The notes beneath the pieces are model-generated. The model was not told where the DNA came from and ran no database searches. It was given only the letters and a program-made list of their open reading frames with translations. A stretch of DNA of 59,988 nt, counting the filler, from Jimgerdemannia flammicorona (Eukaryota): NCBI GenBank assembly GCA_003990765.1. It is 3 parts of 3 records of this genome, joined end to end, with 100 filler letters (N's around TTAATTAATTAA, not from the genome) between each part and the next. Parts side by side here need not be neighbours in the genome. Positions count along the whole stretch, not along the records: positions 1 to 19,936 come from RBNJ01001801.1; positions 20,037 to 39,963 come from RBNJ01001802.1; positions 40,064 to 59,988 come from RBNJ01001803.1. One strand, written 5' to 3'. The position numbers and the translations under genes were made by a program. Positions 6,238-47,087 of this stretch are shown in pieces (the first letter of the stretch is position 1; the number at the start of each line of letters is the position of its first letter).

Positions 6238-8311
6238 TGTAAGGGGGTTACTTTTTAGGGTGACCGTTACGTAGTTCTGGAAGGGTTTTCTAGGAGTTCT
6301 GGATATTCTGGAAGACCGTTTTCTTATGGTCAAGATCAATTTCATATGGAGTATGTCCTCTATGCTTATTGATTTCAAGATCGGGTTGATGTCTCAACCA
6401 AAGTCCTTTTTTGGACTAGTTCTGGATGTTCAGGATTTTCCGTATTTCAGGAAGGTCAAGAAACTAAGACCAGCTTAGTTGAATTGGCGTATCGCTGCAG
6501 ACAATACCCAATTAGGAAATTTCATGACGGGGTTAGGAGTAGGACCTAACAAGGAGCAGATTTACTTAAGAGTAGTTTGTGGGTTATGGAATAGGTTTAT
6601 TTGCTATTCATGATATTGCTATACTAGGAGTAGTTGTGTGAAGGAATATTGTGGGGAAGTGCTCAGGAGTTGTGTTCGGATTATTCAAGTCTTTCAAGTC
6701 TGAGATTCTGAGGTCTGGGGGAGGGGGTATTTATACTAGTGAGGGGCTATCTGGACTATGCTGAATATGGATGTAGCACTAAGTGCCTTGCTGAGTCGGA
6801 ATACAGTCACGTAGTACAAGTGTAATCTGACATGTCAAGAGATCGTCTGACTGCTGAGTCAGTTCACAGTCACGTCGTACAAGGCTAATCTAACTATACT
6901 ATGACTGCTAGACTATTTATAGGTTTAGGCACTATCTGGGTAGTCCTCGATGACATCACCATCGATTGCATCATCTCTGGTGAAGTAGTCATCTAGGAAG
7001 AGTGGTTCGCGGATTACTTCTCCTTGTTGGCTAAGATAGTAATACATTGGGACTTCATCTCCATCCCACAGGATAGCATTGTCTGTTTCGTAAGCTGGAT
7101 AAGGTGTTGGTGGGTGAAGGATGGGTGTATTGTCTTTGCTTTCATCGGATTCGCTGTCTGCGTACCTTCTATAGGTTACAGTACTATGAGTCGCAGGGTT
7201 GTAGTAAGCTGGCGGCTGTGGTTCGAGTCGCTCGTACTCAGGTGGTGGGGTTGTTGGTTCGATCTCTAGGGTTGTTTGGAGGTACAGGTTGTGTTCTCCA
7301 GTCTCTTCATTGTAGTTGAAGTAGTCAGGGGTGAATGCGGGTTGGTATTCGTACCAGTGGTCATTGTCCCAATAAGTCTCATATGTAGTTATGAACTGTT
7401 GTAAGTTCATCAGTAAGGTTGGCGGAGTGATCAGGGTTGGCAGAGATTCTTGGCTTGAGGTTATGTCAGCGTCAGAGGGATCATTGTCTTCTGCTTCATC
7501 TTCATCGAAGTGGATTATATTGTAAACGTCCTTCATGGCATATCCGACTTGAGGCATTTGCAGGATATGGTCATCGGGGTGCGGGAAGGTTCTGTCTGTG
7601 GTTTTGACATACTTGAGGTACTTGTGGTTGATTTCTTGTATCATGTCATCGATTTGGCCATAGGACAGGGTAGTAACCATTTTGCTGATAGTGACTCGGA
7701 GGCGGGAAATAAAGGTATTGTACTCATAGAAGAGTTCTCGATGTTTGCGGGCGATAAGCTTTTGGTGTTGAGACATCTGGGTAGTATCTGTATTGTGGTG
7801 GTGTTCGACCATATCTTCTAGGAGGCGGCCGATCTGGTAGTAGCTTGAGATTTGTCCGATTCGGTGGGCCTCGCTAAGCATGTTCAGGGCATTCCATCAG
7901 GCTTCCACAAAGTAGAGGGGTGCCAGGCTATGGATATTCATGAGGGGCAGAGGGGGTGTGGCTCGGTTGACAATGGCATTCCAAATGTCAGCACGGATAC
8001 AGTTGTAGATCTCGGTGGTCATGTTTGTGTATTTGGAAGTTGTGGTTGTTGTTTGTTTTGGTTTTCTGATTTGACGCATCTTGGTGCTCGGTATATATGC
8101 ATTTGGTCCTGATTGGTAAGGTTCCGTTTGTATAGATCTTGTGTTCTGTGACTTCGTATTGACTCAGCTTTGTGTGCTGTGACTTCGGTTTGACTCAGCT
8201 TCGTGATCAAGCAGGTGATTTCCAGATTTGTTCGGAGGTCGTGTGTGATTTCAGTGGCTTTGTTCAGAGGGTGATGTGTAATTTCGGTGGCTTGGAGGTT
8301 GTGCGCTTACA
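6238..8311 (-). repeat. 3' LTR of family A (2074 bp)
   Basis: TG...CA termini; preceded on the minus strand by the PPT AAGAAGGGGAGAGT; near-identical to 14835-16899. Confidence 0.96.
6925..8022 (-). CDS. LTR(U3)-encoded accessory protein, family A (318-aa open part 6925-7881; 365 aa if the TGA at 7897-7899 is read as CGA)
   Basis: The long ORF is kept in both LTRs. The single upstream stop sits at a different codon in each LTR, so the consensus is open from MTTEIY. The ORF ends just before a TATAAATA motif. Confidence 0.75.
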
Positions 8312-8325
8312 ACTCTCCCCTTCTT
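8312..8325 (-). other. Polypurine tract (AAGAAGGGGAGAGT)
   Basis: Purine run abutting the 3' LTR; the same motif occurs at 25857-25870 in copy 3. Confidence 0.9.
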
Positions 8326-8739
8326 AGCTTTCGACGTCCTCGTCAGGGCCTTCTAATTTGTTCTAGTGTTGTTACACCATTTGGGAGGTCAAAAGTCTGG
8401 TAAGGTCCATTTTTCTCAGAAAGTGGCATGCTCGTAGTATAGTTGCCTAATGTGTTGGATTCACACATTAAAGGGTCGTGTGTTTAATGCCATGCACCGG
8501 AAGTGATTCTGATGTCGTTCACTGCTGGAGAATTTCCTCTAAGGAATCTTCTTAAATATCTATGCCTCGTTTCCCACCAGTGGTACAGAGAGAATAGGCT
8601 TGCTTTCAGTTTTGCTATTTTTTCCAGAGATTCAGTAGTCTTGTCTTGTTTTGCTGAGTTCTCAACTTGGTTCGTGATAGTTATAATGTTCAGGAGGATA
8701 ATATATAGTATGTACGGATAGGTGCAGAGTTTTTTGGTT

Positions 8740-11700
8740 CTAGTTGTTCAAGAAATCATATTCCTGAACTAGGTCAGTAGTATTCTGGAGATTGGTCTTG
8801 GGTTCCCAGGTTGCATCATGGATTGGGTAACCTTTCCATTTGACAAGGTACTCAGGATGGTTCTTGTTGCCACGTTTGTTGAGGATTTGTTCAACTTCAT
8901 ATTCTTCTTGGTCATTAATGATGACAGGTGCAGGTGGTTTGGTGGTCCGATTTGGAAATAGCTCATCATCATTGTCATTGTATCGCTTGAGACGTTGAAC
9001 ATTAAAGACTGGGTGAATCTTAATGGTATCTGGTAGTGCCAGTTTGTAGGAGGTTTGAGAGACTTATGCAATGACTTCAAATGGTTCAATGAACTTGCTG
9101 TTCAGCTTTGTGGATGGTCTGTGCTTGAGGTTATCAACTCGGTATCCTCTGATGTCTAGTAGAACTTTTTCTCCAATATCAAAAGTTTCTTCTCGGCGGT
9201 GTTGGTTAACATACTGTGACTGTTGTTCTTGAGCTCGTGATAAATTCTCAATTGCGATCTGGCTTAGATTGCGTATTCGGAGTAGGAATTCTTCAACAGC
9301 TTCGACTGTGGAGGGTTCTTCAGTAGTTCGGGTAAGTGTCAAAGGGGTGTTCGGGTTTTGTCCAGTATTAGCAAAGAATGGGGTCATTCCAAGAGAGGTT
9401 TGCTTGCTATTGTTATAGGCAAACTCGACTGTAGTGAGATGTTCATGCCAATCATCTTGTCTGTAGGAAACATAGTTCCTTAGCATTTGTTCCAGAGTTC
9501 GGTTCATTCTTTCGGTTTGGCCATCAGTTTCAGGGTGAAAGGCTGTGGATAGTGCAAGTTTCATTCCAAGGTATGCATGGAGGGTTTTCCAAAAGTGGCT
9601 GGTGAATTTCGGATCTCGGTCACTAACAATGATCTTGGGAAGACTATGATAGCGGAAGATGTTGTCAAACAAAAGTGTGGCTATGTCTGGTGCTGTTGCA
9701 GTAGTGGTAGTAGGTACAAAGTGGGCTTGTTTGCTGAGATAGTCCACAAAGACAACAATTGCATCTTTTCCGTTCTTGGTTCGGGGTAGTTGTACAATGA
9801 AGTCCATAGAGATTTGTTCCCAATTTGCAGATGGTACTGGAATAGGGTGGAGTAAGCCAGGTTTTGCTAGTGTTGAGGACTTGTTTCGTTGGCAGGCATC
9901 ACAGGAAGTGATATAGGTCTTGAGCTGATCTGCCATGCAGGGCCAATAGAAGTTTCGGGAGATAACTTCATAACATTTATCAAATCCTAAATGTCCAGCT
10001 GTAGGGGCATCATGACATTCGAATAGGATAGTCCTTCGGAGGTCTCGGTTGTTTGGAACATACAATCTGTCCTTGTAGTAGATAGCATTGTCCTTGAGTT
10101 GGTATTGATTGTACCGGGTATGCTTGTCGGTATCATCATTGTTCTGGATTTCTTGGAGTGCTTGAGCTTCTTTATCATCAACACATGCTGCGATGATTTG
10201 TTCCATGATAGTGTTGGTAACCAAGGTCAGAGTTTGGATAACTTCTTCAATTGGTGGTCTGGAGATTGCATCGGCAACGATGTTTTCCTTGCCAGAGTAG
10301 TACTGGATTTCATAGTCAAAGTTGGTGAGGACTTTCATCCATCTAGCTTGCTTTTGAGAAAGGGTAGCCTGTGTCTTGATGTTGACTAATGACTTGTGGT
10401 CAGTCAATATAGTGAAGTGTGCTCCTTCTAGATATGGTCGCCATTTGATCAGAGTGTCTACGATGGCTAGCATTTCCTTTTCGTGAGTTGCGTAGTTGAT
10501 TTCAGCATCGTTGAACTTGCGGGAGTGATAGGCCACAGGGTGTCCTTCTTGCATGAGCACTGCTCCAAGAGCTAGGTCAGAGGCATCAGTGGTGACTTCG
10601 TATAGTAGGGCAGGGTTTGCCACTTGAAGTACTGGTGTGGTTATCAGGACATCTTTCAGTACTTGAAAGGCGGTATCTTGTTCGGGTCCCCAATTTACAA
10701 GATTGTTGAAGTCTTTTTCTTGTTTCATGGTCCAAGGTTGTTCTTGTTTCTTGCTGTGCTTGGTCATTTGGGTGAGGGCAGTAGCGATTTTGGCAAAGTT
10801 GGCAACAAATCGCCTGTAATAGTTTGCTAATCCCAGAAATGATTGGAGGTCTTTCAGCTTCTTCAGTCTGGGCCAATCTTTGATTGCAGAGATTTTGCTG
10901 GGGTCCACTTTAATTCCATTCGGAGTAACAATGTGTCCAAGGAATTGAATTTCTTTCAGGAGAAATTCGCACTTGCTGAGTTTTGCAAAGAGATGGTTTT
11001 CTCAGAGTTTCAGTAGTACTAGTTCAAGGTGTTCAAGATGTTCCTCTAGGGTTTTGCTGAAGACTAGGATGTCATCAATGTAGACAACAACGAATTTGTC
11101 CAGGTATGGATACAGAATGGTATTCATCAGTGTCTGGAAGGTTGCTGGAGCATTAGTTAAGCCAAAGGACATAACCAGGAACTCGAAGTGTCCGTAGCGA
11201 GTTCGGAAAGCTGTCTTGTAGATGTCTTCTTCTTTCATGGCAATTTGCCAGTAACTATTTCACAGGTCAAAAGAGCTCATGAATTGTGGGTTGGTAAGTC
11301 TATCGAATATTTCATCGATCCTCAGTAGTGGGCAACAGTTCTTGATGGTCTGTTTATTGAGATCGCGGTAGTCGATGCACATTCGTAGGTCTCCTCCTTT
11401 CTTGACAATGAAGAGGACTGGTGCACCATAGGGTGATACGTTGGGTCTGATGAATCCTTATTCTAGGAGTTCGTCGATTTCCTTCTTGAGTGCATCAATT
11501 TCTCTCAGAGACATGTGGTAGATTGACTTGAAGGCTGGTTTGGCATCTGGAATAGTCTTGATGGCATGATCTACTGCTCGTTTCGGAGGTAGGCCTTTTG
11601 GGAGCTTCTTTGAGAATATGTCTCGGAATTTCTGGAGTAGTGATCTGACATGGCTGTCAACTTTGGAAAAATCCTCTTCAGAGTTCTCGGGTTCTCCTTT

Positions 11701-13872
11701 GGATGGTCAGATGGAGATGGTGAAGAGAGGACATTTCTTGGCCAATTTCTTGAGTTGTAGCTTGTTGATGTGGATGATCTTTGGTCCAGGGTCACTAGAG
11801 TTAAGTGAGTCCTTTTCGCCTTGTAGTTTGAAGTTGTGGCGTCCTTTCTTGATGGTTAGAGAATGGTTTACCCAATCGATCATAGGGTTCTCTTGTTTTA
11901 ACCATGGGGTTCCAAGGATGATTTCGTTGTCAGGAAGTGGTATGATTTGGAGGGTAACATGTACTCGGTAGTCGCCAATTCGGAAGGGTAGATTGCGGAC
12001 TTCTTTGCTAATAACATGTGAGGTTCCATCAGCTGTAGCAACTGCTTGAGTTTGCTGTACTGGGGAGGTGAAGACCTTGAGTCTGTTGGCTGTCTCTTTA
12101 TTGATGAAGTTGCCTGAGGCGCCACTGTCTATCATAATCTTGACAGGTGCTCTGTTGACAAAAGCCTTAAGGGTGAGCAGTTTGTCTGATCCAATGGTGG
12201 TAATTTCAGTTGTAGGAGCCTTTCTTCTGTTAGTTCTTCTTTGAGCCAGTTCGTTGACACAAGAGAAGCAATCATCAATCATTCGGGAAGAGTACATTCC
12301 AATACCATGAGGGCATCGGCCACTTGGTACATATCCATCTTCTATCTTCTTGTAGAATTGTTCTTCTTTGCTCACAGTAGGTTGGGCTGGGGCCTTGTTT
12401 GAAGAGCCAAATCCTTTGGATCCTCAGATGGTGGGCAGTAGTTCAGGGACTTCCTTGACTGTCAGGGTTGACTCGATTTTTTCGAATAGGATCTGGGCAA
12501 TGCAGAAGCCAATAGGGATCTTGAAGGGTGTCCAACTGTGGTTTCGGATGAGGACAATAATTTCGCCTATATAATCTTCCTCAATGACTCCTCCTTCTAC
12601 TGAGAGTCCTTTCAGTGCTAGGCTGCTGTGACAGCATATTCTTCCAACATGTCCTTCAGGGATTTGGATACTGATTCCTGTATAGACTTATTTGATTTCT
12701 CGGTTGGAAACTGTAGCTTCTTTGGCTGCATATAGGTCATATCCGGCTGCTTTTTGACTTCCTTTGGTTGGGGCCTTAGCAGTTTGTCTTAACTTGACAA
12801 AGTCTAGTATTCTGGTGGTCAGGTTGTTGAGGTGGTGCAGAGTAGTAACAGTTGCTCATGTTGCTGTTCGGGGTTTTCGGTTGGGGCAGACACTGGCCAT
12901 GTGTCCTGTCTTTTGGCAATAGAAGCATGCTCCGCTTCTTCGAAGTTCATTCCTTTCGCCTTCAGTGAGTTTCTTGAAGGTACTCGGCTGAGTGGGTTCA
13001 TGATTTCTGGGTGTCCACGAGGTGGATGTGGAGGGAGCTCGGGATGCTTCATACTTGGGTTCTTCTTTCTTAGTCCAAGTCTTTTCCTTGTTGTTGAATT
13101 GCCTTCAGGGCAGAATTGGTCCAGCTGTTAGGATTCGCTTGACCATAGTCTTGATTCTTGCCAGGCACCATTGTTGGTGATCGCAACCAACTGGGCAGCC
13201 TTGTTCTTGGATTTTTCTAGTAAGCCATTCAGGTAGGGCATCGAATAAATGGTCTGCTCTTGTACCATTTCGTGCTTCATCATTGGCAATGTATCCTAGG
13301 CCAACAGTGTTCAGGAGTGACTCGAGTTTTGTACAGAAGGTTTCGAATTCTTCTTTGCCATGTATGTCAAATTTGAGGTTGTGGAGTTTTACTCGAGATT
13401 TAGCAATCATGGTTTCACTGCGGTATTGAGCAATCATGAGTTGTTTGAGTCCAGGGGCTGCAGGATGGGCTCCATATCCTGGGGCATTGTTTGCTACATT
13501 CTGAGCAACCACTGCAGGTCGGGTATCCCATGTGAGGGGTTTTTCAGGAAGGGTTCGCCACCATTCTTCGGCAGGTCCTCGGAAGAATGTAACAACTCGG
13601 CGGACATAGGCTGTAGTGGTAGCGAAGAGTTGTTCCAGGGTATGGTCCTGATTGTTTGTCAGAACGCGGTCAGCAACTCGCTCATTGGTCCATTGATTGG
13701 CTTCAAAGTTGGTATCAACTACACTAATGAAGCTTTGAACTTCTTGTGCAGTACCATTGAAGGTAGGTAGGCTCAGATTTTTTGTAGGTCGGGTCTGTTC
13801 AGCTAAGGCAGTAATGGTTGCTGCCATTATAGCTACTTGGGCTGTGAGATCTAGAATCTGTTGGTTCGCCAT
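8740..13872 (-). pseudogene. gag-pol polyprotein of family A with scattered point stops
   Basis: Gag 13105-13872; CFYCQKTGHMASVC ~12885-12930; dUTPase ~12400-12805; protease IDSGAS ~12120; RT YIDD ~11075; RNase H TDASDLALG; integrase HDAPTAGH...CDACQ, SMDF, SDRD, PETDGQTE; chromodomain EEYEVEQIL...YLVKWKGY...TWEP ~8790-8910. Confidence 0.95.
12400..12805 (-). pseudogene. dut: Trimeric dUTPase domain in-frame between zinc knuckle and protease
   Basis: AAGYDLY, HSSLA (degenerate RSSLA), GGVIEEDYIGEI, IAQI, (R)GSKGFGSS match dUTPase motifs 1-5; also present at ~2820-3225 and ~24505-24915. Confidence 0.9.
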
Positions 13873-14819
13873 GTTGATTGCTGGAGACGGTTGGACTACT
13901 GGTAGTGGTGTTACTGGTACTACTTGAGGTACTGGTGCAGAGTGTGATAGGGTTCTTTGGGTCTGTGTAAGTTGCTGGAGTAGTAGTTGTAGATCTGGAG
14001 TGAGGGCTTGATAGATAGCTGTTTGTTGCTGTGTAGGTATATTCTGTCCTGATGGATGTGTGTCTCCTTCAGTAGTGTATCCGGGATCGAATTCGGTGAG
14101 ATACTCCTCCTCTTCTTCGGTTTGGTCCCCATATAATTGGGTTTGCTCGGCATCAAAGTAGACAGAATCAGTTGTATATCTGATTTCAGATGGACTTAAT
14201 TCAAAGTCAAGTTCAGGTTTGGTATTGGTTTCAGATTCAGATAGGGTTGTAGCAGGGCCTGCTTCAGGTTCGAGATCAGGTAGTTGATGAAGGGTTTCTC
14301 TTGCTTCTTCTTTCAGGATATGGCGGGCCTTGCTGTTCTGGAATCGGTAGTATAAGGCGGTCTTGGTTCTGATGCAGTGAAAGTCGGTAGAGTTGAGCCA
14401 CTTGGCTACAGAGGCTTGGGCTTCATGAGGAACTAAGGCTAGAAAGACTGCTGCTGGTTGTCCTAGATCACTCGGATTTGTAGAGCTGACAAAACTCTTG
14501 TTGAGAAGAGTAAAGAAGGCTTCAATAAGACCTTCTTCATCTTGACTTGCTGGGTATAGTGCAAGGAGTTCGGTGAATAGAGTTTCGCCTATTTGTTGGT
14601 TTAACTTGAGTACTTCTTTCTTTGAATGAAGTTTATCCCACTTGTTGCAGGTGTGGAGGTCAAATTGTCCTTGTACGTCAGGTTCAATTCTCTCCAGATT
14701 GTCAGATGGTTCAGGATAAATTTTAGTTCAGAGGTTGGGCTTTATACCAACTTGTAGGAATTCGCAGAGGGGTTTGTAGCGGGGTGAGGAAGCGTCTTGA
14801 AGCGGAATTGGATTGTAAA

Positions 14820-14831
14820 CCACTGCTACCA
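14820..14831 (-). other. Primer-binding site TGGTAGCAGTGG (probably initiator tRNA-Met)
   Basis: TGG lies 3 nt after the LTR end. TGGTAGC is complementary to the ...GCUACCA 3' end typical of initiator tRNA-Met; host tRNAs were not checked. Confidence 0.75.
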
Positions 14832-14834
14832 AGT

Positions 14835-16899
14835 TGTAAGGGGGTTACTTTTTAGGGTGACCGTTACGTAGTTCTGGAAGGGTTTTCTGGGAGTTCTGGA
14901 TATTCTGGAAGACTGTTTTCTTATGGTCAAGATCAATTTCATATGGAGTACATCCTCTATGCTTATTGATTTCAAGATCGGGTTGGCGTCTCAACCAAAG
15001 TCCTTTTTTGGACTAGTTCTGGATGTTCAGGATTTTCCGTATTTCAGAAAGGTCAAGAAACTAAGACCAGCTTAGTTGAATTGGCATATCGCTGCAGACA
15101 ATACCCAATTAGGAAATTTCGTGACGGGGTTAGGAGTAGGACCTAACAAGGAGCAGATTTACTTAAGAGTAGTTTGTGGGTTATGGAATAGGTTTATTTG
15201 CTATTCATGATATTGCTATACTAGGAGTAGTTGTGTAAAGGGATATTGTGGGGAAGTGCTCAGGAGTTGTGTTCGGATTATTCAAGTCTGAGATTCTGAG
15301 GTCTGGGGGAGGGGGTATTTATACTAGTGAGGGACTATCTGGACTATGCTGAATATGGATATAGCACTAAGTGCCTTGCTGAGTCGGAATGCAGTCATGT
15401 AGTACAAGTGTGATCTGACATGTCAAGAGATCGTCTGACTGCTGAGTCAGTTCACAGTCACGTCATACAAGGCTAATCTAACTATACTATGACTGCTAGA
15501 CTATTTATAGGTTTAGGCACTATCTGGGTAGTCCTCGATGACATCACCATCGATTGCATCATCTCTGGTGAAGTAGTCATCTAGGAAGAGTGGTTCGCAG
15601 ATTACTTCTCCTTGTTGGCTAAGGTAGTAATACATTGAGACTTCATCTCCATCCCACAGGATAGCATCATCTGTTTCGTAAGCTGGATAAGGTGTTGGTG
15701 GGCAAAGGATGGGTGTATTGTCTTCACTTTCATCAGATTTGCTGTCTGCGTACCTTCTATAGGTTACAGTACTATGAGTTGCAGGGTTGTAGTAAGCTGG
15801 TGGCTGTGGTTCGAGTTGCTCGTACTCAGGTGGTGGGGTTGTTGGTTCGATCTCTAGGGTTGTTTGGAGGTACAGGTTATGTTCTCCAGTCTCTTCATTG
15901 TAGTTGAAGTAGTCAGGGGTGAACGCGGGTTGGTATTCGTGCCAGTGGTCATTGTCCCAATAAGTCTCATATGCAGTTATGAACTGTTGTAAGTTTATCG
16001 GCAAGGTTGGCGGAGTGATCAGGGTTGGCAGAGATCCTTGGCTTGAGGTCATGTCGGCGTCAGAGGGATCATTGTCTTCTGCTTCATCTTCATCGAAGTG
16101 GATTATATCGTAAATGTCCTTCATGGCATATCCGACTTGAGGCATTTGCAGGATATGGTCATTGGGGTGTGGAAAGGTTCTGTCTGTGGTTTTGACATAC
16201 TTGAGATACTTGTGGTTGATTTCTTGTATCATGTCATCGATTTGGCTATAGGACAGGATAGCAACCATTTCGCTGGTAGTGACTCGGAGGCGGGGAATAA
16301 AGGTATTGTACTCATAGAAGAGTTCTCGATGTTTGCGGGCGATAAGCTTTTGGTGTTGAGACATCTGGGTAGTATCTGTATCATGGTGGTGTTCGACCAT
16401 GTCTTCTAGGAGGCGGCCAATCTGGTAGTAGCTTGAGATTTGTCCAATTCGGTAGGCCTCGCTAAGCATGTTCAGGGCGTTCTATCGGGCTTCCACAAAG
16501 TAGAGGGGTGCCAGGCTATGGATATTCATGAGGGGCAGAGGGGGTGTGGCTCGGTTGACAATGGCATTCCAAATGTCAGCACAGATATGGTTGTAGATCT
16601 CGGTGGTCATGTTTGTGTGTTTGGAAGTTGTGGTTGTTGTTTGTTTTGGTTTTCTGATTCGACGCGTCTTGGTGCTCGGTATATATGCATTTGGTCCTGA
16701 TTGGTAAGGTTCCGTTTGTGTAGATCTTGTGTTCCGTGACTTCGTATTGACTCAGCTTTGTGTGCTGTGACTTCGGTTTGACTCAGCTTCGTGATCAAGC
16801 AGGTGATTTCCAGATTTGTTTGGAGGTCGCATGTGATTTCAGTGGCTTTGTTCAGAGGGTGATGTATAATTTCGGTGGCTTGGAGGTTGTGTGCTTACA
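14835..16899 (-). repeat. 5' LTR of family A (2065 bp)
   Basis: TG...CA termini; followed on the minus strand by the PBS TGGTAGCAGTGG. Confidence 0.96.
15513..16610 (-). CDS. Second copy of the LTR-encoded accessory protein (open 15513-16469; TGG>TAG at 16482-16484)
   Basis: Same-length 318-aa ORF, near-identical to 6925-7881. Confidence 0.75.
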
Positions 16900-16904
16900 G
16901 ATTG

Positions 16905-19900: not shown

Positions 19901-19936
19901 GATAAAGTGGTTTTTCATCAAGAAGGGGTAGGGGGG

Positions 19937-21190: not shown

Positions 21191-21194
21191 CATC

Positions 21195-24100
21195 TATAAT
21201 TAGTTTTGGTGTACTGTACTATTACAAAAGGAAACTGAAGTACCAAACTCAAACTGAGATAAGAAGAACTCTATCTCATCTATCAAAGGTTCATGAACTG
21301 CACTTATCAACTCAAGACCAAGATACACCACAACTATACAAAGACCTCATTACTTAGCAGAAACAAAACACATTTGAACAACTCTGTTTGCTCTATCTGT
21401 ATCACCTCTATTGGAGAATAATAGATACTTCATCTGAACTCAAGAAAGCTGACATTGTCGAAACCAATCTCAAGCCCATCCACGTGATAGATATTACTAC
21501 TAGAAATTGTCTCAGATTATAGAAAATATCATTTCCAAGAGGTTTGAACTCCCAGCCATGAAATTGGGAGCCCTCGCTCTAGACAAGGTTGGCCAGTCCT
21601 CACAAATGTGCTAGCAGTCCAAAAAAAAGAGAACCAAGACCTGTTATCTTTGTACAACCACCACCACTGAGGACAGCCTTAATTTTACAAGAGACAGAGG
21701 TGATGATACCTTTGAAACTGATGATATCAGAAGTCAGAAAACTGCTCAGACTTTGCCAGAGATGATGTCATTAATAGTGATATCATCAAAGACTAACCAG
21801 ACAGCATCTAAATCTATAAATAGCTTAGCAGTCATAGTATAGTTAGATTAGCCTTGTATGATGTAATTATGAACTGACTCAGCAGTCAGACAATCTCTTG
21901 ATATGTCAGATCACACTTATACTATATAACTGTATTCTGACTCAGCAAAGTACTAAGTGCTACATCCATAGTCCAGATAATCCCTCACTAGTATAAATAC
22001 CCCCTCTCTCAGACCTCAGAATCTCAGACTTGAACACACAAGAACATTCCTGAATACTTCTCCACAACATTCCTTTACACAACTACTCCTAGTATAGCAA
22101 TATCATAAATAGCAAATAAACCTATTTAATAACCCACAAACCACTCTTAAGTAAATCTGCTCTCTGTTAGGTCCCACTCCTAACTATATCATGAAATTTC
22201 CTAATTGGATATTGTCTGCAGTGATACACTGATTCAACTAAGCTGGTCTTAGTTTCTTGAACTTCCTGAAATATGGAAAAACCTGAACATCCAGAACTAG
22301 TCCAAAAAAGGACTTTGGTTGAGATGTCAACCCAATCTTGAAATCAGTAAGCATAGAGGACATACTCTATACAAAATTGATCTTGACCTTAAGAAAATGG
22401 TCTTCCAGAATATCTAGAACTTCCAGAAAACCCTTCCAGAACTACATAACAGTTACTCTAACAAGTAACTCTCTTACAACTTGGTAGTAGTAGTTTACAT
22501 TCCAATTCTGCTTCAAGATGCTTCCTCACCCTGCTACAAATACCTCTGAGAATTCCTACAAGTTGGTATAAAGCCCAACCTCTGAACTGGAATTTATCCC
22601 AAACCATCTGACAATCTGGAGAGAATTGAACCTGGCATACAAGGACAATTTGACCTCCACACCTGCAATAAGTGGGACAGACTTCATTCAAAGAAAGAAG
22701 TACTCCAACTAAATCAGCAGATAGACAAAACCCTATACACCAAACTCCTTGCTCTACACCCAGCAAGTCAAGATGAAGAAGGTCTTATAAAAGCCTTCTT
22801 TACTCTTCTCATCAAGAGTTTTGTCAGCTCTATAAATCCAAGTGATCTAGGATAACCAGCAGCAGTCTTTCTAGCCTTAGTTTCTTACAAAGCCCAAGCC
22901 TCTGTAGCCAAGTAGCTCAACTCTACCAACTTTCACCATACCAGGACCATGACCACATTATACTACTAATTCCAGAATAGCAAGGCCCACCATATTCTTA
23001 AGGAAGAAGCAAGAGAAACCCTTTGTCAACAACCTGACCCTGAACCAGAAGCAGGCCCAGCTACAGTCCTACCTGAACCTGAAACCAATACTGAACCAGA
23101 ACTTGACTTTGAATTAAGTCCATCTGAAATCAGATATATAACTGATTCTGTCTACTTTGATACTGAGCAAACCCAACTACATGAGACCAAGCCAAAGAGG
23201 AGGAGGAGTATCTCAGTGAATTCAATCCTGGATATACCATCAAAGGAGACACACCTCCATTAGGACAGAACCCACCTACATAGCAATGGACAGCTATCTA
23301 TTGAGCCCTCACTCCAGATCCACAACTATTACTCCAGCAACTTACACAGACTCAAAGACCCCCATCACACTCTGCATCAATACCTCAAGTAGTACTAGTA
23401 ATACTACTATCAGTAATCCAACCATCTCTAGCAAACAATATGCAAACCAACAGATTCTAGATCTTATAGCTCAGATAGCCATAATGGCAGCAACCATTAC
23501 TGCCTTAGCTGAATAGACCTGACCAACCAAAAATCTGAGCCTACCTATCTTCAATGGTACTGCTCAAGAAGTCCAAAGCTCCATTAGTGTAGTTGACACT
23601 AACTTCAAAGCCAATCAATGGACCAATGAGCAAGTTGCTGACCACCTTCTGACAAACAATTAAGACCACACTCTGGAACAACTCTTTGCTACTACTATGG
23701 TCTATGTCTATCGAGTTGTTACATTCTTCTGAGGACCTGTTGAAGAATGGTGGTGAACCCTTCCTGAAAAACCCCTCACATTGGATACTCAACCTGCAGT
23801 AGTTGCCCAGAATGCAGCAAACAATGCCCCAGGATATGGAGCCCATCCTGCAGCCTCTGGACTGAAATAACTCATGATTGCTCAATACCACAGCAAAACC
23901 ATGATTGCCAAATCTCAAGTTAAACTCCACAACCTAAAATTTGATATATATGGCAAGGAGGAATTTGAAACCTTTTGTACAAAACTCGAGTCACTTCTAA
24001 ACACTGTTGGCCTAGGATACATTGCCAATGATGAAGCATGAAATGGTACAAGAGCAGACCATTTATTCAATGTACTACTGGAATAGCTTACTAGAAAAAT

Positions 24101-27100: not shown

Positions 27101-27354
27101 TATGCTGATTCAACTAAGCTAGTCTTAGTTTCTTGAACTTCCTGAAATACAGAAAAACCTGAATATCCAGAACTAGTCTAAAAAAGGACTTTGGTTGAAA
27201 TATCAATCTAATCTTGAAATCAATAAGCATAGAGGACATACTCCATATGAAATTGATCTTGACCTTAAGAAAACAGTCTTCCAGAATATCTAGAACTTCC
27301 AGAAAACCCTTCCAGAACTACGTAATAGTTATTCTAACAAGTAACCCTCTTACA
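21195..27354 (+). mobile_element. Ty3/gypsy family A, copy 3: deletion derivative (gag-NC-dUTPase-PR, lacks RT/RH/IN) with variant LTRs
   Basis: 5' LTR (truncated on the left) ends 22478, then TGGTAG PBS. Gag, dUTPase and IDSGAS follow. At ~25690 the sequence jumps to chromodomain-proximal DNA. PPT 25857-25870; 3' LTR 25871-27354 (TGTAAG...TTACA). Confidence 0.92.
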
Positions 27355-27759
27355 ACATAGGTTATCAAAGAAGTAAGATAGGGATTTAATGAAAGGATCC
27401 CAAAGAGATAGTATATTAAAGATATATATTACTCAATTAGGCAATTATATATATATATTATATAATTATAGAATTCATTGTATATACAATATCTTGTCCT
27501 CTTTTCCTTATGCTCAATTATCTTCACTATCATACAGTTTTACTCCCACCCACCTCTCTATTTATATATATATTATATATTGGGTTCTTTGAAACTGACT
27601 GATATAATGTATTCAAGACAGAAACATTCCTCATACACACATTCACTCAAATATGCAAACTTATACACATCTAATTTATTATTATATATAATCTAGTATA
27701 AGGGTGGCAGCTATGAGTGGGTATGGGTTATCAAAGGAGTAAGATGGGGATTTAACTTA

Positions 27760-35050: not shown

Positions 35051-37401
35051 ATTGCTGGTCACTCCTCAACCTGGTATGTTCTTATTATCTTTATATATCT
35101 TATATATACTATTACAAGAGAGAATACTTTGATATAGTAGTGGTAAAGGTAACTTAGATGAGTGTTTTGACAAACAGAAGCAAATATCTTACAAATTGTT
35201 TTCTCTTGACTATATATTACAACTACTTTAGTACTTACAAACTCCAGATATTTAATATTATGTTGAACTTTTGAACTATGCATCATTATGGCTAGAAACC
35301 TTTAGAGGAGTTTTCATTAATGATCTCTATAAGGCAATCAAGGCAGCAAAACCCAATGACATTATCTGTAACTATAACTAGCTGATCCTCCTTATCACTC
35401 ATCCTGATGCTGAGAGCAATGATATACTAGATAATGATCTTCTTGAATAATATAGTGATATTAACACACTCATATAACATTATAAAATCATGAGGGTAAA
35501 TCCCATTAAGGTTAAACTGTCCCTGAGTCAAAACTTATAAGAAACAATATCTTTACAAACCCTTGATAAGTTTTTTAAAATTGTATTACAATTTATCATT
35601 TTACATTATGAATATATATCTAATGCATTATTGGATTAACTAGATTATATTTTATCTACCATATCACTATCAAAGTATTCAAGAGTTGACTTACTATCTA
35701 GTAAGCCAAATATATTGAGCTGAATATTAAGAGAAACAACACCCACACCAACTCCTGATAAGTATATATTTTAATAATTATATTTGATATGTGATACTTA
35801 TAATATATGGATACTTATTAATATTATATTAGATTCAATAGGTTATATTACATCTACTGTATCACTATCTAAGTATTCCAGGATTGCAGAAGCTACATAT
35901 AGAAGAGCTTTGTAATAAGATCTCATTATATTTGATATGTAAAGAGATAGATCTGTATAAACAATTGCTGGTAGTTAGTGTAATAGTTGTATATGAAACT
36001 GTATTACATAGATATAAGTGGAAATATAATGATCTTAATGATAATGAAGATAATATTCAAACAGAAAGCATAAAATTTCTATACTTTTATGGTATAAATA
36101 AAAGATGTACTTGTTCTTAATTATATTGGGGTTCCTGCAGCAAAGAAAATTATTAAAATAATCAAGAGATGACTTGTTATATTTATTTAATATTTCTTTC
36201 TATTGACTTGATAATTATTTCCCAGAGCAGACAGAGTAAGACAATATATCTGATAATATACCTAGTATCATTCCTAAATATAGATAATTCAATGATGATA
36301 ATATAAGGTTATACATTATTATATTACTATTTATCAAAACAAACCTAGTATTAATAATTGTATTTTTTCTACTTAGAAATTAGAATTTTCTTTGAGTATT
36401 ATAGTACTTAGAAGAAAAACAATATCAATTAACTATATAATTCCAAATAACAGTCCATCTGCAGCAACAGTGACAGATTTATCATATATTCCCTCTTCTC
36501 CTAATTCAGATATCAGTGAAGAATCTATCATTAAGATAAATAAGAATAGTGATATAAATTATTTTGTTGGACCTAGTGAAATTGAATAGAGCCTGGATGA
36601 TTGTCTATCTTGAGTAAATATTTTATATTTTACACAATGTTTATATTATATATATGATTTATATTTATCATATTATTTATCTTCCAATGATAGATCATAG
36701 ATGAAGTTGACATCTCAAATATATGTCATGAATATTGAACAGTAATTATTAGAAAGTATAAGTCAATAAAAGTTTATCTAGCAGCTCTTGAAGAACTGTA
36801 GGTATTTAATTTTAGTATCTAATTATATAGTTAATATTGATATATTGAAATAATATAGCCAAACTATTTTCTTCACAGAGCTTTAAGCTATATATTTGTT
36901 TTTTAAAAAGAGAATCTGCATGATCTATATGGATATTTCGATGACAATCTCTGGAGAAATTTGTTTATTAAATTCCGAAACCTGTATCCATATTTATCTA
37001 TCTCAGATAATATCCTTCAGATATTCACTAACACTATTAGTGAGATTTCAAAAAATACCTCTTTCTTTATATAAGTATTCCTGCTCTAATATTATGATTT
37101 TGAGTTTAGATTATATATAAGAATCCAAATTATCAAAACTATAAAGCCATTATATATAGTGTAACGGTGACCCCAGAATGATGACATCAGCACAGGAGAC
37201 AGCCTTTCCTTACAAGCCACCAGATCGAAGCACAAGAAGATCATATGGCATATGAGATGAGCAATGATGACCAACTGTGAGTCATTGTGACCACAGCACA
37301 AGTATCCTGAAGAATATAAAAGAAGGATCAAGGAACCGCAGTAGCAGCAACCAACAAGAACCACCAATCCCAAAATAGCTCAAAGACTTACTACAAATGA
37401 A

Positions 37402-38229
37402 ATGCCTGCCGCCTGCCAAACCTCAAGGTCAAGGAAACACCAAGGTACCTCGGTCGAAGAAAGGATGTTCCAAGACATCAGAAGAGCCATGGAGACCCAC
37501 TCAAGAAGGACTCCTAGTGTCAACCTAGGTACTGCAGACCCCTATCACTTCATCCTCTACCGCTGTGAAATGGAAACAAGGATCACCATTGCCACCGAAT
37601 ACCTCCAAATATGGCAGGAGTACAAAATAGGAAACCTCCTCTGCCGGGAGTTCCCACAGGCCAGCCCTCAAGAGCTACAAGATGCCACTCCCATAGACCT
37701 ATGAGAAGCAAGGACAGCAAAGAAGATCCATCAGATCTTCAGGCATGCACCATAGTCGATTCCCAACTTGGAGTATGTTAGAGTCTCAGATTTCAGAGAC
37801 CTGTCATCTCGCCGCATCAATGCACTAGAAGCCAGGGTGGCTACAGAAGCCCAGTCCACTATCACCCTCAACAGTGAAGAAGTAGAAGACTTCTGGTACC
37901 CCATCCTTCAGGACAACCCAGACCAATTCCTGCAAGGATTGATCTCAGTATTCCAAGGCCCAAGCATCTGGGTTAGATCCCCCCAAGACCCCACATTTGT
38001 CCCCTATTTTGTGGAAGAGAACCTCATAGACTGGAGAGCTCCAGATCTTGTCCCCGATTTCCCCGCCGAACGTGATGACATCATCGGTGATGACGTCATC
38101 CTGCATGACATTGACATACCCAAAGTACGCGAGATGTATGACCTGCATGACAAATTCGCAGATCTCATCTCCTTCAGTGATGATGATGATGATGATGAAG
38201 CCCCCATGGTCCTGAAATTTCTGCTCTAA
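37402..38229 (+). pseudogene. LTR-encoded accessory ORF, family B (275 codons, two in-frame point stops)
   Basis: ORFs 37402-37704 and 37768-38229 are in the same frame. The linker reads *EARTAKKIHQIFRHAP*SIPNL, with stops explicable as CGA>TGA and TGG/CAG>TAG. Confidence 0.72.
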
Positions 38230-38792
38230 GTTCTTTGTTACACTGAATAATGCCAGCACCAGTATTCTGAGGTGACGCGAAATTGTTCCAGCATCAGCAT
38301 TTTGATATGATACTGGATAATGCCAGCATCCTGAACCTGTACAACCAACAATACCAGCCCTGGAACTTAGTAGTTTTAGTTATTGGAACTTATATTTAGC
38401 TTTATATCTTAGCAACCATTGAATTATATTTTGTATAAATACTCCTCTTATTTCCTCTGAAATAAAGTCAGTTCCTCTCAGTGCAATACACACTTCCTTG
38501 CAAGCAATCTAAGAGATAACAAGACAGTTAAAAAGATAAGAAGTTTGAGGACTATAAGACCTTAGGAAGGCACTCCAATAAGAACTTGCTTATAACAACT
38601 TGAGTTAGTCTAAGAGATATATCTTGAAGAGAATCTGACATATTCGAAGGACTCAGCGACCACTACGTGACAACTTGGTGCCCATTGGCTGGTGATTCAA
38701 GATGAATCCCTCACTTTCAAGCTGAAAAACGAACAACCCCCACAACAACTACCCTGACTACAAGAGTTACCCCTGCAAGAATTCAAGACAAG

Positions 38793-39963
38793 ATGGAAAT
38801 GCGTCCCCCCACATTCTATGGATATACTACTGAAGAGTCAATCCTGACCTTCATTGAAGACTTTGAACAATTTGCCACCATATGAGCCCTTGATGTGGAT
38901 GCTCAATTGGCCCTTCTACCAGTCAGCCTCAGAGGACCTGCCAGAGACAAGTTCAATGCAGCCACCATTGCTGGTACTGATGCAGTCAAACTTGCCAATA
39001 TGAAGGTCTTCCTCAGAAACACATACTATACTAAAGAGATCAAGCAAGCTCTCAAGGATCAACTCAATACTATCTGCCAGGGATTTAGTGAAGATCCCAA
39101 CTCATTCTATACCCGAATCTGCCACCAGATTGTCCTGGCTGGCTATGACGATGCCCTCAAGGAACAAATAGCGGATTCAACCTTCCTCAAAGGAGTTCAC
39201 CCTGAAATTGCCCTAGCAATCTGGTCTACCCCAGCTGCACTGACCCTTGATCAGAAAGTGGTCTTTGCACAGAGATATTGGACTGCCAGACACCCTGCCA
39301 AACACTCAATGGGGAAAATAACTGGCATCAAGATAGAGCTATCAAAGCCAACTAGCATCCTACCTGCCACAGTTGTAAACAGACAACCAACCTCATCTAC
39401 CCCCAAGACAGCCAAAGCTGACCCAGTGGAAGAACTTGCCAAGCAGTTTGCCGAGATGACTGCACACCTTGGTGATGTTGTTAGAGAATTCCGAAGCACT
39501 AACAGAAGACCAGTACAGAGATTTGCAGCTGCTACAGAAGAACGCAATAACATCACATGCTTCAGATGTGGAGAAGAAGGCCACTATGCAAAGAATTGCA
39601 TGACTGAAACAAGATGCAAAGCCCAACCAAGCAATGCTAGCAGAACCAGAGAACAAATCAATGCAGTAGTCATCGAGGAGATTGGTGACACTGATGATGA
39701 AGAATATTACGAGGAGCTTGAATTCTACTCTGCTACTGAAGGTACCAGAACTCAGTCCAAGCCCTATGACAAGAAGAGCAATAGCAAGCCAGTTGGAAGA
39801 CCAAAGAAAACCCCAGCTGTCACTATTCAAAGCAAGACCCAACCTGAGGAGATTGATCAAGACATGGAGTTAGATGAAGCTGCCCGCCAAATCATTGAAG
39901 GCACTACTCCAGTCTCAGGAGAAAGTGAAAGCAAGAAGGAACAGAAGCTGCACAAGACCAAGG
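38793..39963 (+). CDS. gag: Gag of family B (capsid-like region plus CCHC zinc knuckle), one internal TGA, runs into the gap
   Basis: MEMRPPTFYG...; CFRCGEEGHYAKNC at ~39558-39599. Confidence 0.88.
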
Positions 39964-40063
39964 NNNNNNNNNNNNNNNNNNNNNNNNNNNNNNNNNNNNN
40001 NNNNNNNTTAATTAATTAANNNNNNNNNNNNNNNNNNNNNNNNNNNNNNNNNNNNNNNNNNNN
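39964..40063. other. Assembly gap / artificial contig linker
   Basis: N44-TTAATTAATTAA-N44. Confidence 0.99.
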
Positions 40064-40663
40064 GGGGGAACAAATATATAAACATTGCAATGTAAGAATT
40101 TGAATAGGTATTTTTGTGTCAAAAATAACCTATTCAGGGGGAAGATGTGACATATGGTATGAAATAGAAACAGGAAATAGACATTTGATCGTAGTACCTG
40201 AATCCAATTTCCGATTTAGTATAGTCTTTTACTGTGGACACTGCATCTAAAACATTATCAGTGAAACTCTTGTTACTTTCACGAATTTCAGATAGGATTT
40301 CACATGAGATTCTACCTGAGAATTTCACATGAAAAGACTTAATACTTAGCCGCATATTTAGTAGCAGAATTAGCGCACAAATCTGTATAAATAACTCAGT
40401 ATTTTAGAGTGAATAAACCTCAGTCAGAACGAGTCAGATCAAACCAGTCCAATTCCAAAATCCATCCAACTTACTAAATTCCGTGTCCACTACGTTACAA
40501 TATATAACTTAAATAAAAATATCAACTGTATTCCCCAAAAAAATAAAATATAAACTAAAAGAAATATATATAAACTAGAACTATATATAATTCAGAATTA
40601 CAACTATTTAGAAATTTTCAATAATTGAAATATATTCCAAATATCTAAAATATCTACTCTTAT

Positions 40664-40913: not shown

Positions 40914-40949
40914 ACTCTTATATAAGATATATAAATATAATATATATAG

Positions 40950-44163: not shown

Positions 44164-45799
44164 CTGACTATACACTATGAGGTACAAAGTGTGAGAAGAA
44201 TAAGTATCTTTTTTTCCATATAGGACCCTCTGTTTGATGGAGTTGAAGAGACCTAATAATTGAAGCTATTGGATGAGGGTAAAGATGTCCCATTGTAGGG
44301 CTTTGTCCTTGAGGGGAGGGAGATATAGGTTGTCTACTCCTCAGATGAGGCAGGAGATTGTGGAGAGTTTAGAGAAATAGATACTATTGATAGATAGTAT
44401 CTAGTGGCAAATGGCAATGTAGATACTACAGAGTTGGTAGGTACTCATACCCTTATAGAAAAGGTAGCCTAAACAGTTGGTCTATTATTCTATGATTGCT
44501 CTAGTGAGATTGATATGCTGTTGACTATACTAATAGATATGCAGATTTGGAGTTCTTATGAGAAGAGATTTATATACTGGTCCAAATAAGATTTCTAGTC
44601 AGTACTGTTAGATTTTTAGTATCTGGGGAGTACCACTGATGAGTTCCACTAGGTTATTCTAGTAATATATCTATATTATTATTCCTATTATATAATGTAA
44701 AAGAAGAATTAGAAAGACTATTGCTATTCTCAAGAGCTTGGGCTACCAGCTCTATTATTGCCAGAAGAGTGTGATGAGGATAAGATAGTTGCAATAATCC
44801 TCCTTTACCTTGTACAGTATGTAGTTGATGAGGATCTAGGGGAGTTTGCATATGCCCTGATGGGTGGCCATTAGTGTTAGAAGGTATCTGTCTTTAGGGT
44901 AGCTGAGTTGGGTCACCAGCTATAGAAAAGAGGAGTCTGCATCATTATTCGGAATACCAAAAGATCTATATATATTGGGCCCCACTGGTAGTAGAGTTGT
45001 TGGATAGTAGAGAGTTGCAGTTTCCAATCATTGGGGTCAGGATATATATAACTTAAAAAGTCTGCCCATATATTCTCTGTCTCTGGCAGATATTCTATAA
45101 AGAGGTAAATGCATCATATTAGACAGATCTGATGAATCTGGACAGTAATATCATTAAGGTAGAGGAGAGATCTCTCTTGTTTATTGACAAAGGTCTGTAT
45201 TATTATGTTATCTATTGTAATGTGCCTGACTCAATAGAGGCAAATTACAAGGTTGGAAGTTGATGTAGTTTGGCTTAAGCCCCCAGTTACTTTGTCAAAA
45301 AGCAACAAAATGTTCTAAGATTCCTGAGGTCCTTGGTGTTTAGTGGTATAATAGTCAAGATCTGGATACTGTGTGAGGGTTTCCTTTTTGGGACAGGTTC
45401 TTGAGTGTAGCAGCAATTAGTGTGTGAATGGATTTTCTTCTTGGGTAGTGGTCAATTTGTATATAACATGAGCGGGTTCCTTATTTGGGTCAACTGAGAA
45501 CTGGTAGAATTTCATATGTAGTGTAAATGGGTTCCTTATTTGGATCAACTGGGAATATCACAATTTTATGTAGCATGATGATCCCTGTATGACAGTCTGG
45601 CAATTTAGCAGTTCTCCTTCTTGAGTGATGAGCGATCTCTATATAGCATGATGATCTCCAAAAGTATGTGATTCCTGGCAGATGGCTTGATTTGGCTCAC
45701 TGGGAATAGAGGCGGCAGGTTCTCCTTGGGCTTACTGGGAACAACAAATAACTCGGATGACACAGATTTGACTTTTAACTAGGAATACTACTCGGATGA

Positions 45800-45990
45800 T
45801 GCAGACTCTTCCTGAATTGGCAGGCTCTTCTGAGAATACGATGGCATGGATTCTTTCTGAATTGGTGAACTCTTCTGGGAATATAATGGTGCAGATTCTT
45901 CCTGAATTAGTGGCTTCAACTGGGAATGCGGATAACTTGAAAATGGCAGATGACACAGATTCTTCTGAATTAGCAGACTTCTGGGAAATG
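45800..45990. repeat. 45-bp tandem repeats inside family C LTRs (also ~51260-51435)
   Basis: Recurring G(A/G)TTCTTCCTGAAT..GC..G..CTTCTG(G/A)GAAT units. Confidence 0.8.
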
Positions 45991-46580
45991 GTGGCGAAGT
46001 TCTTTCTTGAACTTGGTGGCAAACTTCAGGCTTATCTGGCAAGCAGACCAAAAACAGACTTGTTCTTTGTATTAGAAAGTGGACCAGAGTAGAAGAGAAG
46101 AGAACCAAGCTCACAACTTCTTGGCAGTGGCTCATTGGCAGGTGTATCTCCTAAGTATTGCAATCCTTCTTGGATCAAGTGGCTTTTGGCAGGTGTTTCT
46201 CCTAAGTGTACCAGACAATTGACTTTTGCTTTGGTTTGTATTCAACTTTTGGACTGAGGTTTATTCACTCTTATCTCTGGAGTAATTTATACATTGTGGT
46301 TGCTATCTGGTTACTACCTGGCTAACTATAGATTTGCTATCTATGGTGTGTTTGGGCAGATGGTCACTGTTCGGCAGACAGCCACTGTCCAGGGGATAGT
46401 CACTGTTCACATTATTCCCTTCTTTGGCTATCTGGTTATTTATACATTTTTCTGCAGCAATGGTTGCTGGTTACTATACTATGCTAATGTTCACATCACC
46501 TGGTTAGGTTTTGAGATTGCTATGTTTTATGGTTTGTTACATCAGCCCCTACTGAAGGATAGTCTGTCCCAGACTGTTCT

Positions 46581-47087
46581 TCAGTCATCATCCCAATAGG
46601 CATAAGCTGCTTCTGCATCTATATCTATCCCATCATCTTTATTGTCTGTATCAGGGTCACTCTATTCTAGCTCTAGATCTTCTTCTTGTCCTTTGGGAAA
46701 CAGGATGTCTACTTGTTGGAGAATACTCTGAAAGGTGGTCTCATTCATCTGATGAATATCATTGAGATAGAAGTGAGATTGCACTAGGGCTCCAACATTT
46801 CGTTTGTATAGAGTGTAGATTTGTTTGGCAGTTCTGACTTCTCGGCAGGTTATCCCAGCTAGTCCTCCAATATATGGTTGTTCTTCAAGTAATTGTCTGA
46901 TGTTGTAGAAGGCCTGTAGATGGTGGATCTGTAACAATCTTTGGGTGATGGCAAGGTTCTCTTGATGCTTTTGGATCAATTGTATCAGGGTTCCTTCAAG
47001 TTGGCAGAACTGGGGTAAGAGAACTGGTAGGGCCTAGAAGGAGCTGAGAACCAATGTCTGGAGGTGCTGATCAATCCTTTGGCTCAT
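46581..47087 (-). pseudogene. Accessory ORF3 of family C, between the polyprotein stop and the PPT
   Basis: The ATG overlaps the upstream TGA. Reads MSQRIDQHLQ...AFYNIRQLLE...REVRTAKQIYTLY..., then an acidic tail; two point stops and a probable late frameshift. Confidence 0.7.

Follow-up and report, generated by a model that had tools for sequence, protein, structure and literature searches.

A probable accessory protein family in three Ty3/gypsy retrotransposon lineages of the fungus Jimgerdemannia flammicorona

Introduction

Accessory genes are regarded as a hallmark of the complex retroviruses. Tas (Bel1) of the foamy viruses is the product of a 3'-end gene that reaches into the U3 part of the long terminal repeat (LTR); it has an acidic C-terminal part and acts in trans on its own LTR. 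The sag gene of mouse mammary tumor virus (MMTV) is a sense open reading frame (ORF) wholly inside U3, hence present in both LTRs, and Sag is a membrane glycoprotein. Fungal gypsy elements are, to our knowledge, usually described as gag-pol only. Here we describe a putative third gene in three Ty3/gypsy families (A, B and C) of the fungus Jimgerdemannia flammicorona, apparently placed within U3 in two of them. The DNA analyzed (the window) is 59,988 nucleotides long and joins parts of three records of assembly GCA_003990765.1 (RBNJ01001801.1, RBNJ01001802.1 and RBNJ01001803.1) end to end, with 100 filler N's between each part and the next.

In the plant gypsy elements Retrosat2, RIRE3 and RIRE8, an additional ORF, ORF0, lies downstream of the 5' LTR and ahead of gag-pol, according to the available part of its description (PMC3485330). 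By the same partial account (PMC3485330), and comparing by description only, ORF0 resembles the ORFs considered here in being a lineage-restricted extra ORF of elements with unusually long LTRs, and in evolving faster than pol while remaining constrained; it differs in position, the present ORFs lying 3' of pol or in the LTR. Bdelloid rotifer LTR retrotransposons have captured additional ORFs, and there too, as far as the accessible portion of the source goes (PMC5408684), accessory ORFs are common to diverse retroelement types; those ORFs carry recognizable enzyme or env-like domains, whereas the family described here has no known domain. A published description of this family was not found in the full-text literature, including the available sections of PMC11075540, PMC11952901, PMC3248453 and PMC3485330, supplementary transposable-element (TE) libraries being outside the scope of that search. 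What appears to be new here is a conserved, selected third gene in deeply diverged gypsy families, U3-placed in two of them; its closest precedents, within these partly available sources, are the U3/3'-end accessory genes of complex retroviruses and the plant ORF0-type extra ORFs.

One protein family in three element lineages

The sense-strand ORFs that a preliminary description of this DNA had located in A, B and C are present where it placed them, and their translations match those it quoted. The three lineages are as distinct as it had held: no BLASTN similarity was found among the LTRs of A, B and C; in tblastx comparisons of the internal regions, A and B gave no match and B and C matched at 23% over 81 residues; and the gag sequences align poorly or not at all. 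The copies of the accessory ORF in the window have one or two stop codons each and zero frameshifts, and each of the three families has intact homologues (P0002, P0003-P0005, P0009, P0010, P0012 and the metagenome locus L001), those of ORF B being P0003-P0005 and the L001 ORF. In element A, the stop of the 3'-LTR copy is at codon 42 (TGA, versus CGA in the 5'-LTR copy) and that of the 5'-LTR copy at codon 43 (TAG, versus TGG in the 3'-LTR copy). Since the two LTRs were identical upon insertion, and each copy has an intact codon at the position of the other's stop, ORF A was intact at that time. Relatives in the protein databases are few (two for A, six for B, five for C); a metagenome scan for the family gave the single locus L001, and scans of viral contigs found no relative.

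Are the three proteins homologous? Their similarity was to be judged against shuffled sequences, and the outcome was divided: pairwise BLASTP among A, B and C was not significant (E 0.24, 0.45 and 2.4), and the profile tests were. Comparison of the three small family alignments with hhalign gave P 0.0028-0.011, with low reported probabilities of 4-11%; against column-shuffled alignments, the real score was higher in 75/75, 75/75 and 74/75 trials. Hidden Markov models (HMMs) of each family were also scored against members of the other families; in all 12 pairs tested, which had been chosen from the better-scoring rows, only 1-7 of 2000 residue shuffles did as well. The decisive test was of a leave-one-family-out design: two families were aligned anew without the third and made into a profile, and the third was scored with it against 3000 shuffles. 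The B+C profile gave 20.0-21.7 bits with three A sequences, no shuffle of the 3000 being as high for any of the three targets, and the A+B profile 13.4-17.0 bits with four intact C proteins (0-1 of 3000 as high) and only 3.9 bits with the window's own C copy (42 of 3000). Five B sequences scored 3.7-10.6 bits with the A+C profile, 1-24 of 3000 shuffles being as high. Profiles from the joint alignment scored higher than the leave-one-family-out ones. That pooling two families raises the score argues for homology rather than chance.

All alignments also fall into a single register, anchored by Y-x-I-G-x-x-L and R-x-A-K-x-I-x-x-(L/I)-(F/Y), and those of all three families begin at a common initiator Met. 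The tails have a stretch in common, (R/K)DDxIxxD(V/I), within a region where A 328-358 aligns with B 202-233. Run over the six frames of the window, the merged three-family profile retrieves the four ORF copies only; against 177,635 PDB sequences it gave no match (best E 0.53).

One alternative is that three unrelated lineage-specific ORFs, all helical with acidic tails, resemble one another by chance. The BLASTP values (E 0.24-2.4) and the hhalign probabilities of 4-11% are in line with this, as is the fact that residue shuffling does not preserve helical amphipathic periodicity. It sits poorly with leave-one-family-out scores of up to 21.7 bits that none of 3000 shuffles reached, with real scores above those of column shuffles, with the one register in all three pairs and the second motif common to the tails, with the same position relative to a conserved LTR core (see below), and with a merged profile that finds nothing else in the window or in the PDB. 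Chance resemblance is already disfavored and seems quite improbable. The three ORFs very probably represent one protein family from a common ancestral Ty3/gypsy element, and the proposal of a single homologous protein encoded by all three families is borne out by both the leave-one-family-out and the joint profiles.

Position of the gene and of the LTR boundary

The LTRs of A, B and C (Table 1) and of L001 have a core in common, GTATAAAT.AC.CC and then AATAAA, the latter as AATAAACCT in A, C, L001 and an LTR fragment at ~40400 and as plain AATAAA in B. The distance from TATA to AATAAA is 26-27 bp in B and C and 134 bp in A; the C-type core module is found in L001 and in the fragment at ~40400 as well. 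The ORF stop lies upstream of the core TATA by 190 bp (A), 205 bp (B) or 290 bp (C), so that the gene keeps its place relative to this promoter/poly(A) module. What differs is the place of the polypurine tract (PPT) and LTR start. In C this boundary is downstream of the gene, and ORF C is therefore the last internal gene, ending 40 nt short of the 3' LTR (45216-46541) and separated from it by the PPT; in A and B the boundary is upstream, and the gene is thus within U3 and copied into both LTRs. ORFs A and B lie wholly in U3, upstream of TATA sequences at LTR positions 1577 (A) and ~1275 (B). The location of ORF B inside an LTR is inferred without an LTR pair, because the N's at 39964-40063 cut element B and one LTR of it is present in the window. 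Just past these N's, at 40064-40560, is an LTR end (…GTATAAATAAC…AGTGAATAAACCTCAGTC…CGTTACA) that resembles the metagenome locus L001 more closely than it does the B LTR.

Table 1. Positions of the LTR elements, accessory ORFs and associated motifs in the window. TSD, target-site duplication; PBS, primer-binding site.
Feature	Position	Strand	Description
Element A	6238..16899	-	Complete Ty3/gypsy chromovirus; TSD CAATC
A 3' LTR	6238..8311	-	2074 bp; starts TGTAAGC, ends TTACA; preceded by PPT AAGAAGGGGAGAG
A LTR core	6596..6735	-	GTATAAATACCCC at 6735; AATAAACCT at 6601
ORF A, 3'-LTR copy	6925..8022	-	365 codons; LTR positions 290-1387; one stop
Promoter-like stretch, ORF A	8095..8197	-	TGAGTCA 175 and 144 bp, ATATATA 76 bp before ATG
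A 5' LTR	14835..16899	-	2065 bp; followed by PBS TGGTAGCAGTGG
ORF A, 5'-LTR copy	15513..16610	-	One stop; 92% amino-acid identity to 3'-LTR copy
Element A'	21192..27356	+	Older relative of A with internal deletion; LTRs 1290 bp
B LTR	37160..38672	+	~1.5 kb; TGTAACG...CGTGACA, then PBS and gag; boundaries inferred from single copy
Promoter-like motifs, ORF B	37278..37321	+	TGAGTCA 124 bp, TATAAAA 87 bp upstream of ATG
ORF B	37402..38229	+	275 codons; LTR positions ~243-1070; stops at codons 101 (TGA) and 118 (TAG)
B LTR core	38434..38466	+	GTATAAATACTCC; AATAAA 27 bp further
B gag (zf-CCHC)	38886..39963	+	Cut by N's at 39964-40063
Element C	45216..51989	-	LTRs 45216-46541 and 50675-51989, ~1.3 kb, 87.8% identity
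C LTR core	46260..46291	-	TGTATAAATTACTCC, then AGTGAATAAACCTCAGTC after 26 bp
ORF C	46581..47087	-	168 codons; between pol end and PPT; TAG stops at codons 18 and 142
ATGA overlap	47084..47087	-	Two bases common to pol stop TGA and ORF C ATG

The overlap of pol and ORF C in element C may allow coupled translation, or it may be mere compaction. It also raises the question of whether the domain is an independent gene at all, or an extension at the C-terminus of pol/integrase made by frameshifting or read-through: ORF C is in the -1 frame relative to pol, its frame stays open over the 62 codons that precede its ATG, and two database homologues are called with 18-21 extra N-terminal residues. Such an extension is very improbable, given that ORFs A and B are beyond the PPT, inside the LTR and 0.7 kb from the pol stop, and that the three families align from a common initiator Met.

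The placement at the 3' end or in U3 had at first been likened to that of retroviral accessory genes, and the coordinates of the ORFs and LTR cores agree with this. As with foamy-virus Tas, the product of a sense gene at the 3' end or in U3 has an acidic C-terminal part, and the gene may have a separate promoter upstream of it. Here, however, the element lacks env and resides in a fungus, and no sequence or fold match to Tas was found in Pfam or, with a model of moderate quality, in BFVD. ORFs A and B resemble MMTV sag in position, as sense ORFs wholly inside U3 and hence in both LTRs; unlike Sag, the accessory proteins have no hydrophobic segment.

Protein features

For the C-family member P0009, AlphaFold2 (AF2) run on the merged alignment predicts an all-helical protein of four helices (residues 15-34, 50-85, 97-112 and 114-145), with predicted local distance difference test (pLDDT) values of 73-85 in the core and a disordered tail. 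For the B family alone the model is unusable (pLDDT 35.9), with helices at the aligned places nonetheless. The N-domains are neutral to basic (isoelectric points 6.2-10.3). The tails consist of 21-46% D/E and 7-14% F/W/Y, and 39-residue tiles with a net charge of -9 or lower and at least seven W/F/Y/L occur in 9/9 sequences; this is an activation-domain-like composition. The modeled protein would thus be a helical N-domain of ~130 amino acids without known family, followed by a disordered acidic aromatic tail, and the helical N-part and acidic tail of the preliminary description are sustained, the one by AF2 and the other by composition. A hydrophobic or transmembrane segment was not found: in eight sequences, the highest 19-residue Kyte-Doolittle mean was 0.47-1.54, against a threshold of 1.6. 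An env-like third ORF of the errantivirus/Athila type was considered and rejected, there being no transmembrane segment and the AF2 model being a soluble helical bundle; the initial judgment that the ORFs are not env-like holds.

Searches for a known family or fold were uniformly negative. Pfam scans of seven translations and of 13 members of the family gave no family match. Foldseek against the PDB gave no match (best E 0.77); the VIA wide search reached a best Z of 6.0, to generic helical bundles and below the tool's noise level for helical models; and in BFVD, queried with a model of moderate quality, there was nothing at E <= 0.001 (best E 0.36). Feature scores in the ESM Atlas were 0.80-0.83, under the bar of 0.9; a cluster of 61 members and 244 amino acids came first for the B and C queries and is a lead only. 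A match to an already described TE domain, the outcome that had been set against a new family from the start, was found in none of Pfam, PDB, Foldseek, VIA and BFVD.

One suggestion that did not survive at the sequence level is a likeness to the helical domains DUF1016_N and DUF3102. Neither has a Pfam row at E <= 10 with any of the seven translations or 13 members, and for DUF1016_N (PF17761) the control, E. coli YhcG, gave 130 bits. With hhalign, the merged N-domain profile gave P 0.23 against E. coli YhcG and P 0.19 against a 28-sequence DUF1016_N alignment (30 of 45 loci picked, two then dropped for stops), in the latter case over 11 columns that cover the Y-x-I-G motif only. The one point in favor of the link, a structural row to DUF1016_N in the ESM Atlas (TM score 0.43/0.52 over 102 residues), is marked as under the bar, and no PDB chain of DUF1016_N was among the Foldseek or VIA matches. 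The Y-x-I-G motif in a helix is common to DUF1016_N and the accessory family; unlike the latter, DUF1016_N proteins are prokaryotic and fused to a PD-(D/E)XK nuclease.

Selection and decay

ORF B and the intact L001 ORF (323 codons, 323 amino acids) are 72% identical as DNA, and no other long stretch of the B LTR can be aligned to L001 at the DNA level. Over 236 aligned codons, the proportions of nonsynonymous (pN) and synonymous (pS) differences are 0.24 and 0.62, corresponding to a dN/dS of 0.225, for one sequence pair in one family and with synonymous sites near saturation; the differences are distributed 75/51/105 over the three codon positions. The two LTR copies of ORF A served as a control. 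Between them are 48 differences, every one a transition (CT 15, AG 12, GA 11, TC 10), and 18 of these are synonymous, versus 32.9% expected for random transitions (p 0.54). The 21 best-supported variant sites of mapped sequencing runs within ORF A (codon positions 7/5/9) were too few and too selected a set to be used. As judged from these sequences, the accessory gene appears to be under purifying selection between lineages, and the two LTR copies of ORF A appear to have decayed neutrally after insertion. A dN/dS near 1, after correction for C>T hypermutation, had been named as the value to look for if the proposal were wrong; the one value between lineages is 0.225, and the pair within one insertion behaves neutrally.

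All stops in ORFs A, B and C can be reached by transitions from CGA, CAR or TGG. Among contigs of sequencing runs that map to the A LTR, variants are mostly transitions, with an excess of G>A on the plus strand. The transition bias of the ORF copies suggests a deamination-type decay of repeats.

This decay bears on one possible function of the protein, that of a counter-defense factor that blocks silencing (by RNA interference, DNA methylation or heterochromatin) through sequestering a host component. Host pressure appears strong, with transition-only decay of copies and AT-rich degraded repeats in the window, and an element without the ORF could profit in trans: A' may be such an element, its LTRs retaining only the last ~18 ORF codons together with the 740-bp 3' part of the LTR. 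Because both A' LTRs keep these last codons only, an ORF-less form has transposed. Nothing specific favors a counter-defense role, no similarity to a known suppressor or any other family having been found in Pfam, PDB or BFVD, and it is considered unlikely.

Expression and possible function

ORFs A and B lie ~0.7 kb past pol, and therefore need an mRNA of their own. Going by motifs, the 5' part of U3 may hold a small promoter-like unit (Table 1) that drives their expression, with transcripts ending at the LTR poly(A) signal. L001 keeps a TATA box (GAATATAAAAG) ~65 bp upstream of its ATG. TGASTCA is not enriched in the window as a whole (18 occurrences versus 13.0 expected, a count reached in 12 of 100 shuffles), so the TGAGTCA sites upstream of the ORFs remain a lead. 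In contigs from two runs, whose RNA type was guessed, depth is low over ORF A and high from ~6717 downward, just past the TATA at 6735, which hints weakly that transcription of A starts mainly at the downstream TATA; no RNA dataset matching the A LTR is listed.

A 9.6-kb contig from a sequencing run presumed to be RNA matches the tail region of ORF A over 300 bp only (7114-7413, ~81% identity), near one end of the contig. It may represent a further related family carrying part of the accessory gene.

Taken as a whole, the best explanation of the ORFs is one inherited protein family, at the 3' end or in U3, maintained by selection and acting as a trans-acting regulator; a rough probability for this combination is 0.4. 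Its functional part, a control in trans over expression of the element itself as exerted by foamy-virus Tas, is the likeliest of the functions considered; it is drawn by analogy and held tentatively, with the odds somewhat against it. By this model, the N-domain would attach at the LTR, either to DNA or to a host factor, leaving the acidic-aromatic tail to bring in the transcription machinery, as in Tas. In A and B, TGAGTCA sites in U3 and the TATA-like box 76-87 bp before the ATG would drive an accessory mRNA that ends at the LTR poly(A) signal, and the gene would have crossed the LTR boundary via a shift of the PPT, becoming part of U3.

Several points weigh against this explanation. Pairwise comparisons of the three proteins are not significant, hhalign probabilities are low, and the window's own C copy scores poorly with the A+B profile. 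The AF2 model of the B family alone is unusable, and the estimate of selection comes from a single pair of sequences near synonymous saturation. Transposition of A' LTRs without the ORF means that the gene is not needed in cis. The TGASTCA motif is not enriched across the window, and expression of the ORFs is without RNA support, the matching runs being contigs whose "RNA" label was guessed. The absence of any fold or family match leaves the protein without a functional handle, and an acidic aromatic tail suits histone or adaptor binding equally to activation.

The last of these leads to another possibility, that the protein is a chromatin or integration adaptor: the tail would bind histones, integrase or Gag, and the helical domain would oligomerize or bind the preintegration complex, aiding targeting or particle assembly and not transcription. 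Acidic tails of histone chaperones bind histones, and the tail composition fits an adaptor as well as an activator. ORF C abuts the C-terminus of integrase, with the ATGA overlap suggesting translation coupled to pol, and C is without the chromodomain that A has, so that some lineages may need another targeting device. However, A has both the chromodomain and the ORF, and ORFs A and B, which lie past the PPT and are separated from the end of pol by over 700 nt, can have no such coupling. An adaptor role is on balance doubtful, although it comes next in likelihood after the regulator and ahead of counter-defense.

The trans-acting regulator proposed above can also be carried a step further for A and B. 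Their LTR could be a self-contained gene cassette, so that every full element and even every solo LTR would supply a family-specific activator or anti-silencer in trans, with Tas-like positive feedback. The bZIP-type sites and TATA-like box in the 5' part of U3 would give a short accessory mRNA, the encoded factor would activate the main promoter of the LTR, 200 bp downstream, and a shift of the PPT alone would have moved the gene into or out of the repeat. This extended version is rather unlikely as a whole.

Should the trans-acting regulator be confirmed, these elements would carry a regulator of their own, and solo LTRs may still be coding; this would bear on the control, or failure of control, of retrotransposons in large, repeat-rich fungal genomes. 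For annotation, the family would give a place to ORFs presently called orphan "hypothetical proteins". The locus would also be a natural example of a gene crossing an LTR boundary through movement of the PPT.

Other features of the window

Self-comparison and a Pfam scan of 74 ORFs reveal the window to be a nest of LTR retrotransposons. Element A has TG..CA ends, a TSD, a PBS, a PPT, and the domain order and C-terminal chromodomain of a Ty3/gypsy chromovirus. Its domains are gag with a zinc knuckle, dUTPase, protease, reverse transcriptase, RNase H, integrase and chromodomain, the Pfam order on the minus strand being RVP/gag-asp, RVT_1, RT_RNaseH, Integrase_H2C2 plus rve, and Chromo (E 6.9e-18); its LTRs are 95.95% identical across 2074 bp. 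The body of element C, 4.1 kb long and internally deleted, retains gag and the C-terminus of integrase, and no chromodomain was found in it by the Pfam scan.

An extra dUTPase domain is uncommon among fungal gypsy elements. In family A it lies between gag and protease, at 12427-12687 (-), 2768-3262 (+) and 24457-24717 (+), with a Pfam E of 3.3e-33 for the copy at 2768-3262. The gag of this family (13108-14727 (-) and 843-1445 (+)) has an N-terminal part of ~300 amino acids without a Pfam match ahead of the capsid/zinc-knuckle region.

The region 17000-20700, within which the N's at 19937-20036 fall, is GC-rich with a strong GC skew and carries an RVT_1 domain on the plus strand (18059-18943, E 6.7e-19); it is probably a non-LTR element. 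In AT-rich surroundings, an ORF at 34329-34853 (+) has at its end the N-terminal domain of Crinkler effectors (Pfam PF20147, E 1.1e-08). This domain, soil metagenome datasets with matching sequence and one Mucoromycota cluster in the ESM Atlas suggest that the fungal host may be mycorrhizal. Finally, a 437-amino-acid ORF at 57658-58968 (-), probably a host metacaspase-like gene, has a caspase domain (Peptidase_C14, E 1.1e-11) with TSP(E/Q)QT-type repeats ahead of it.

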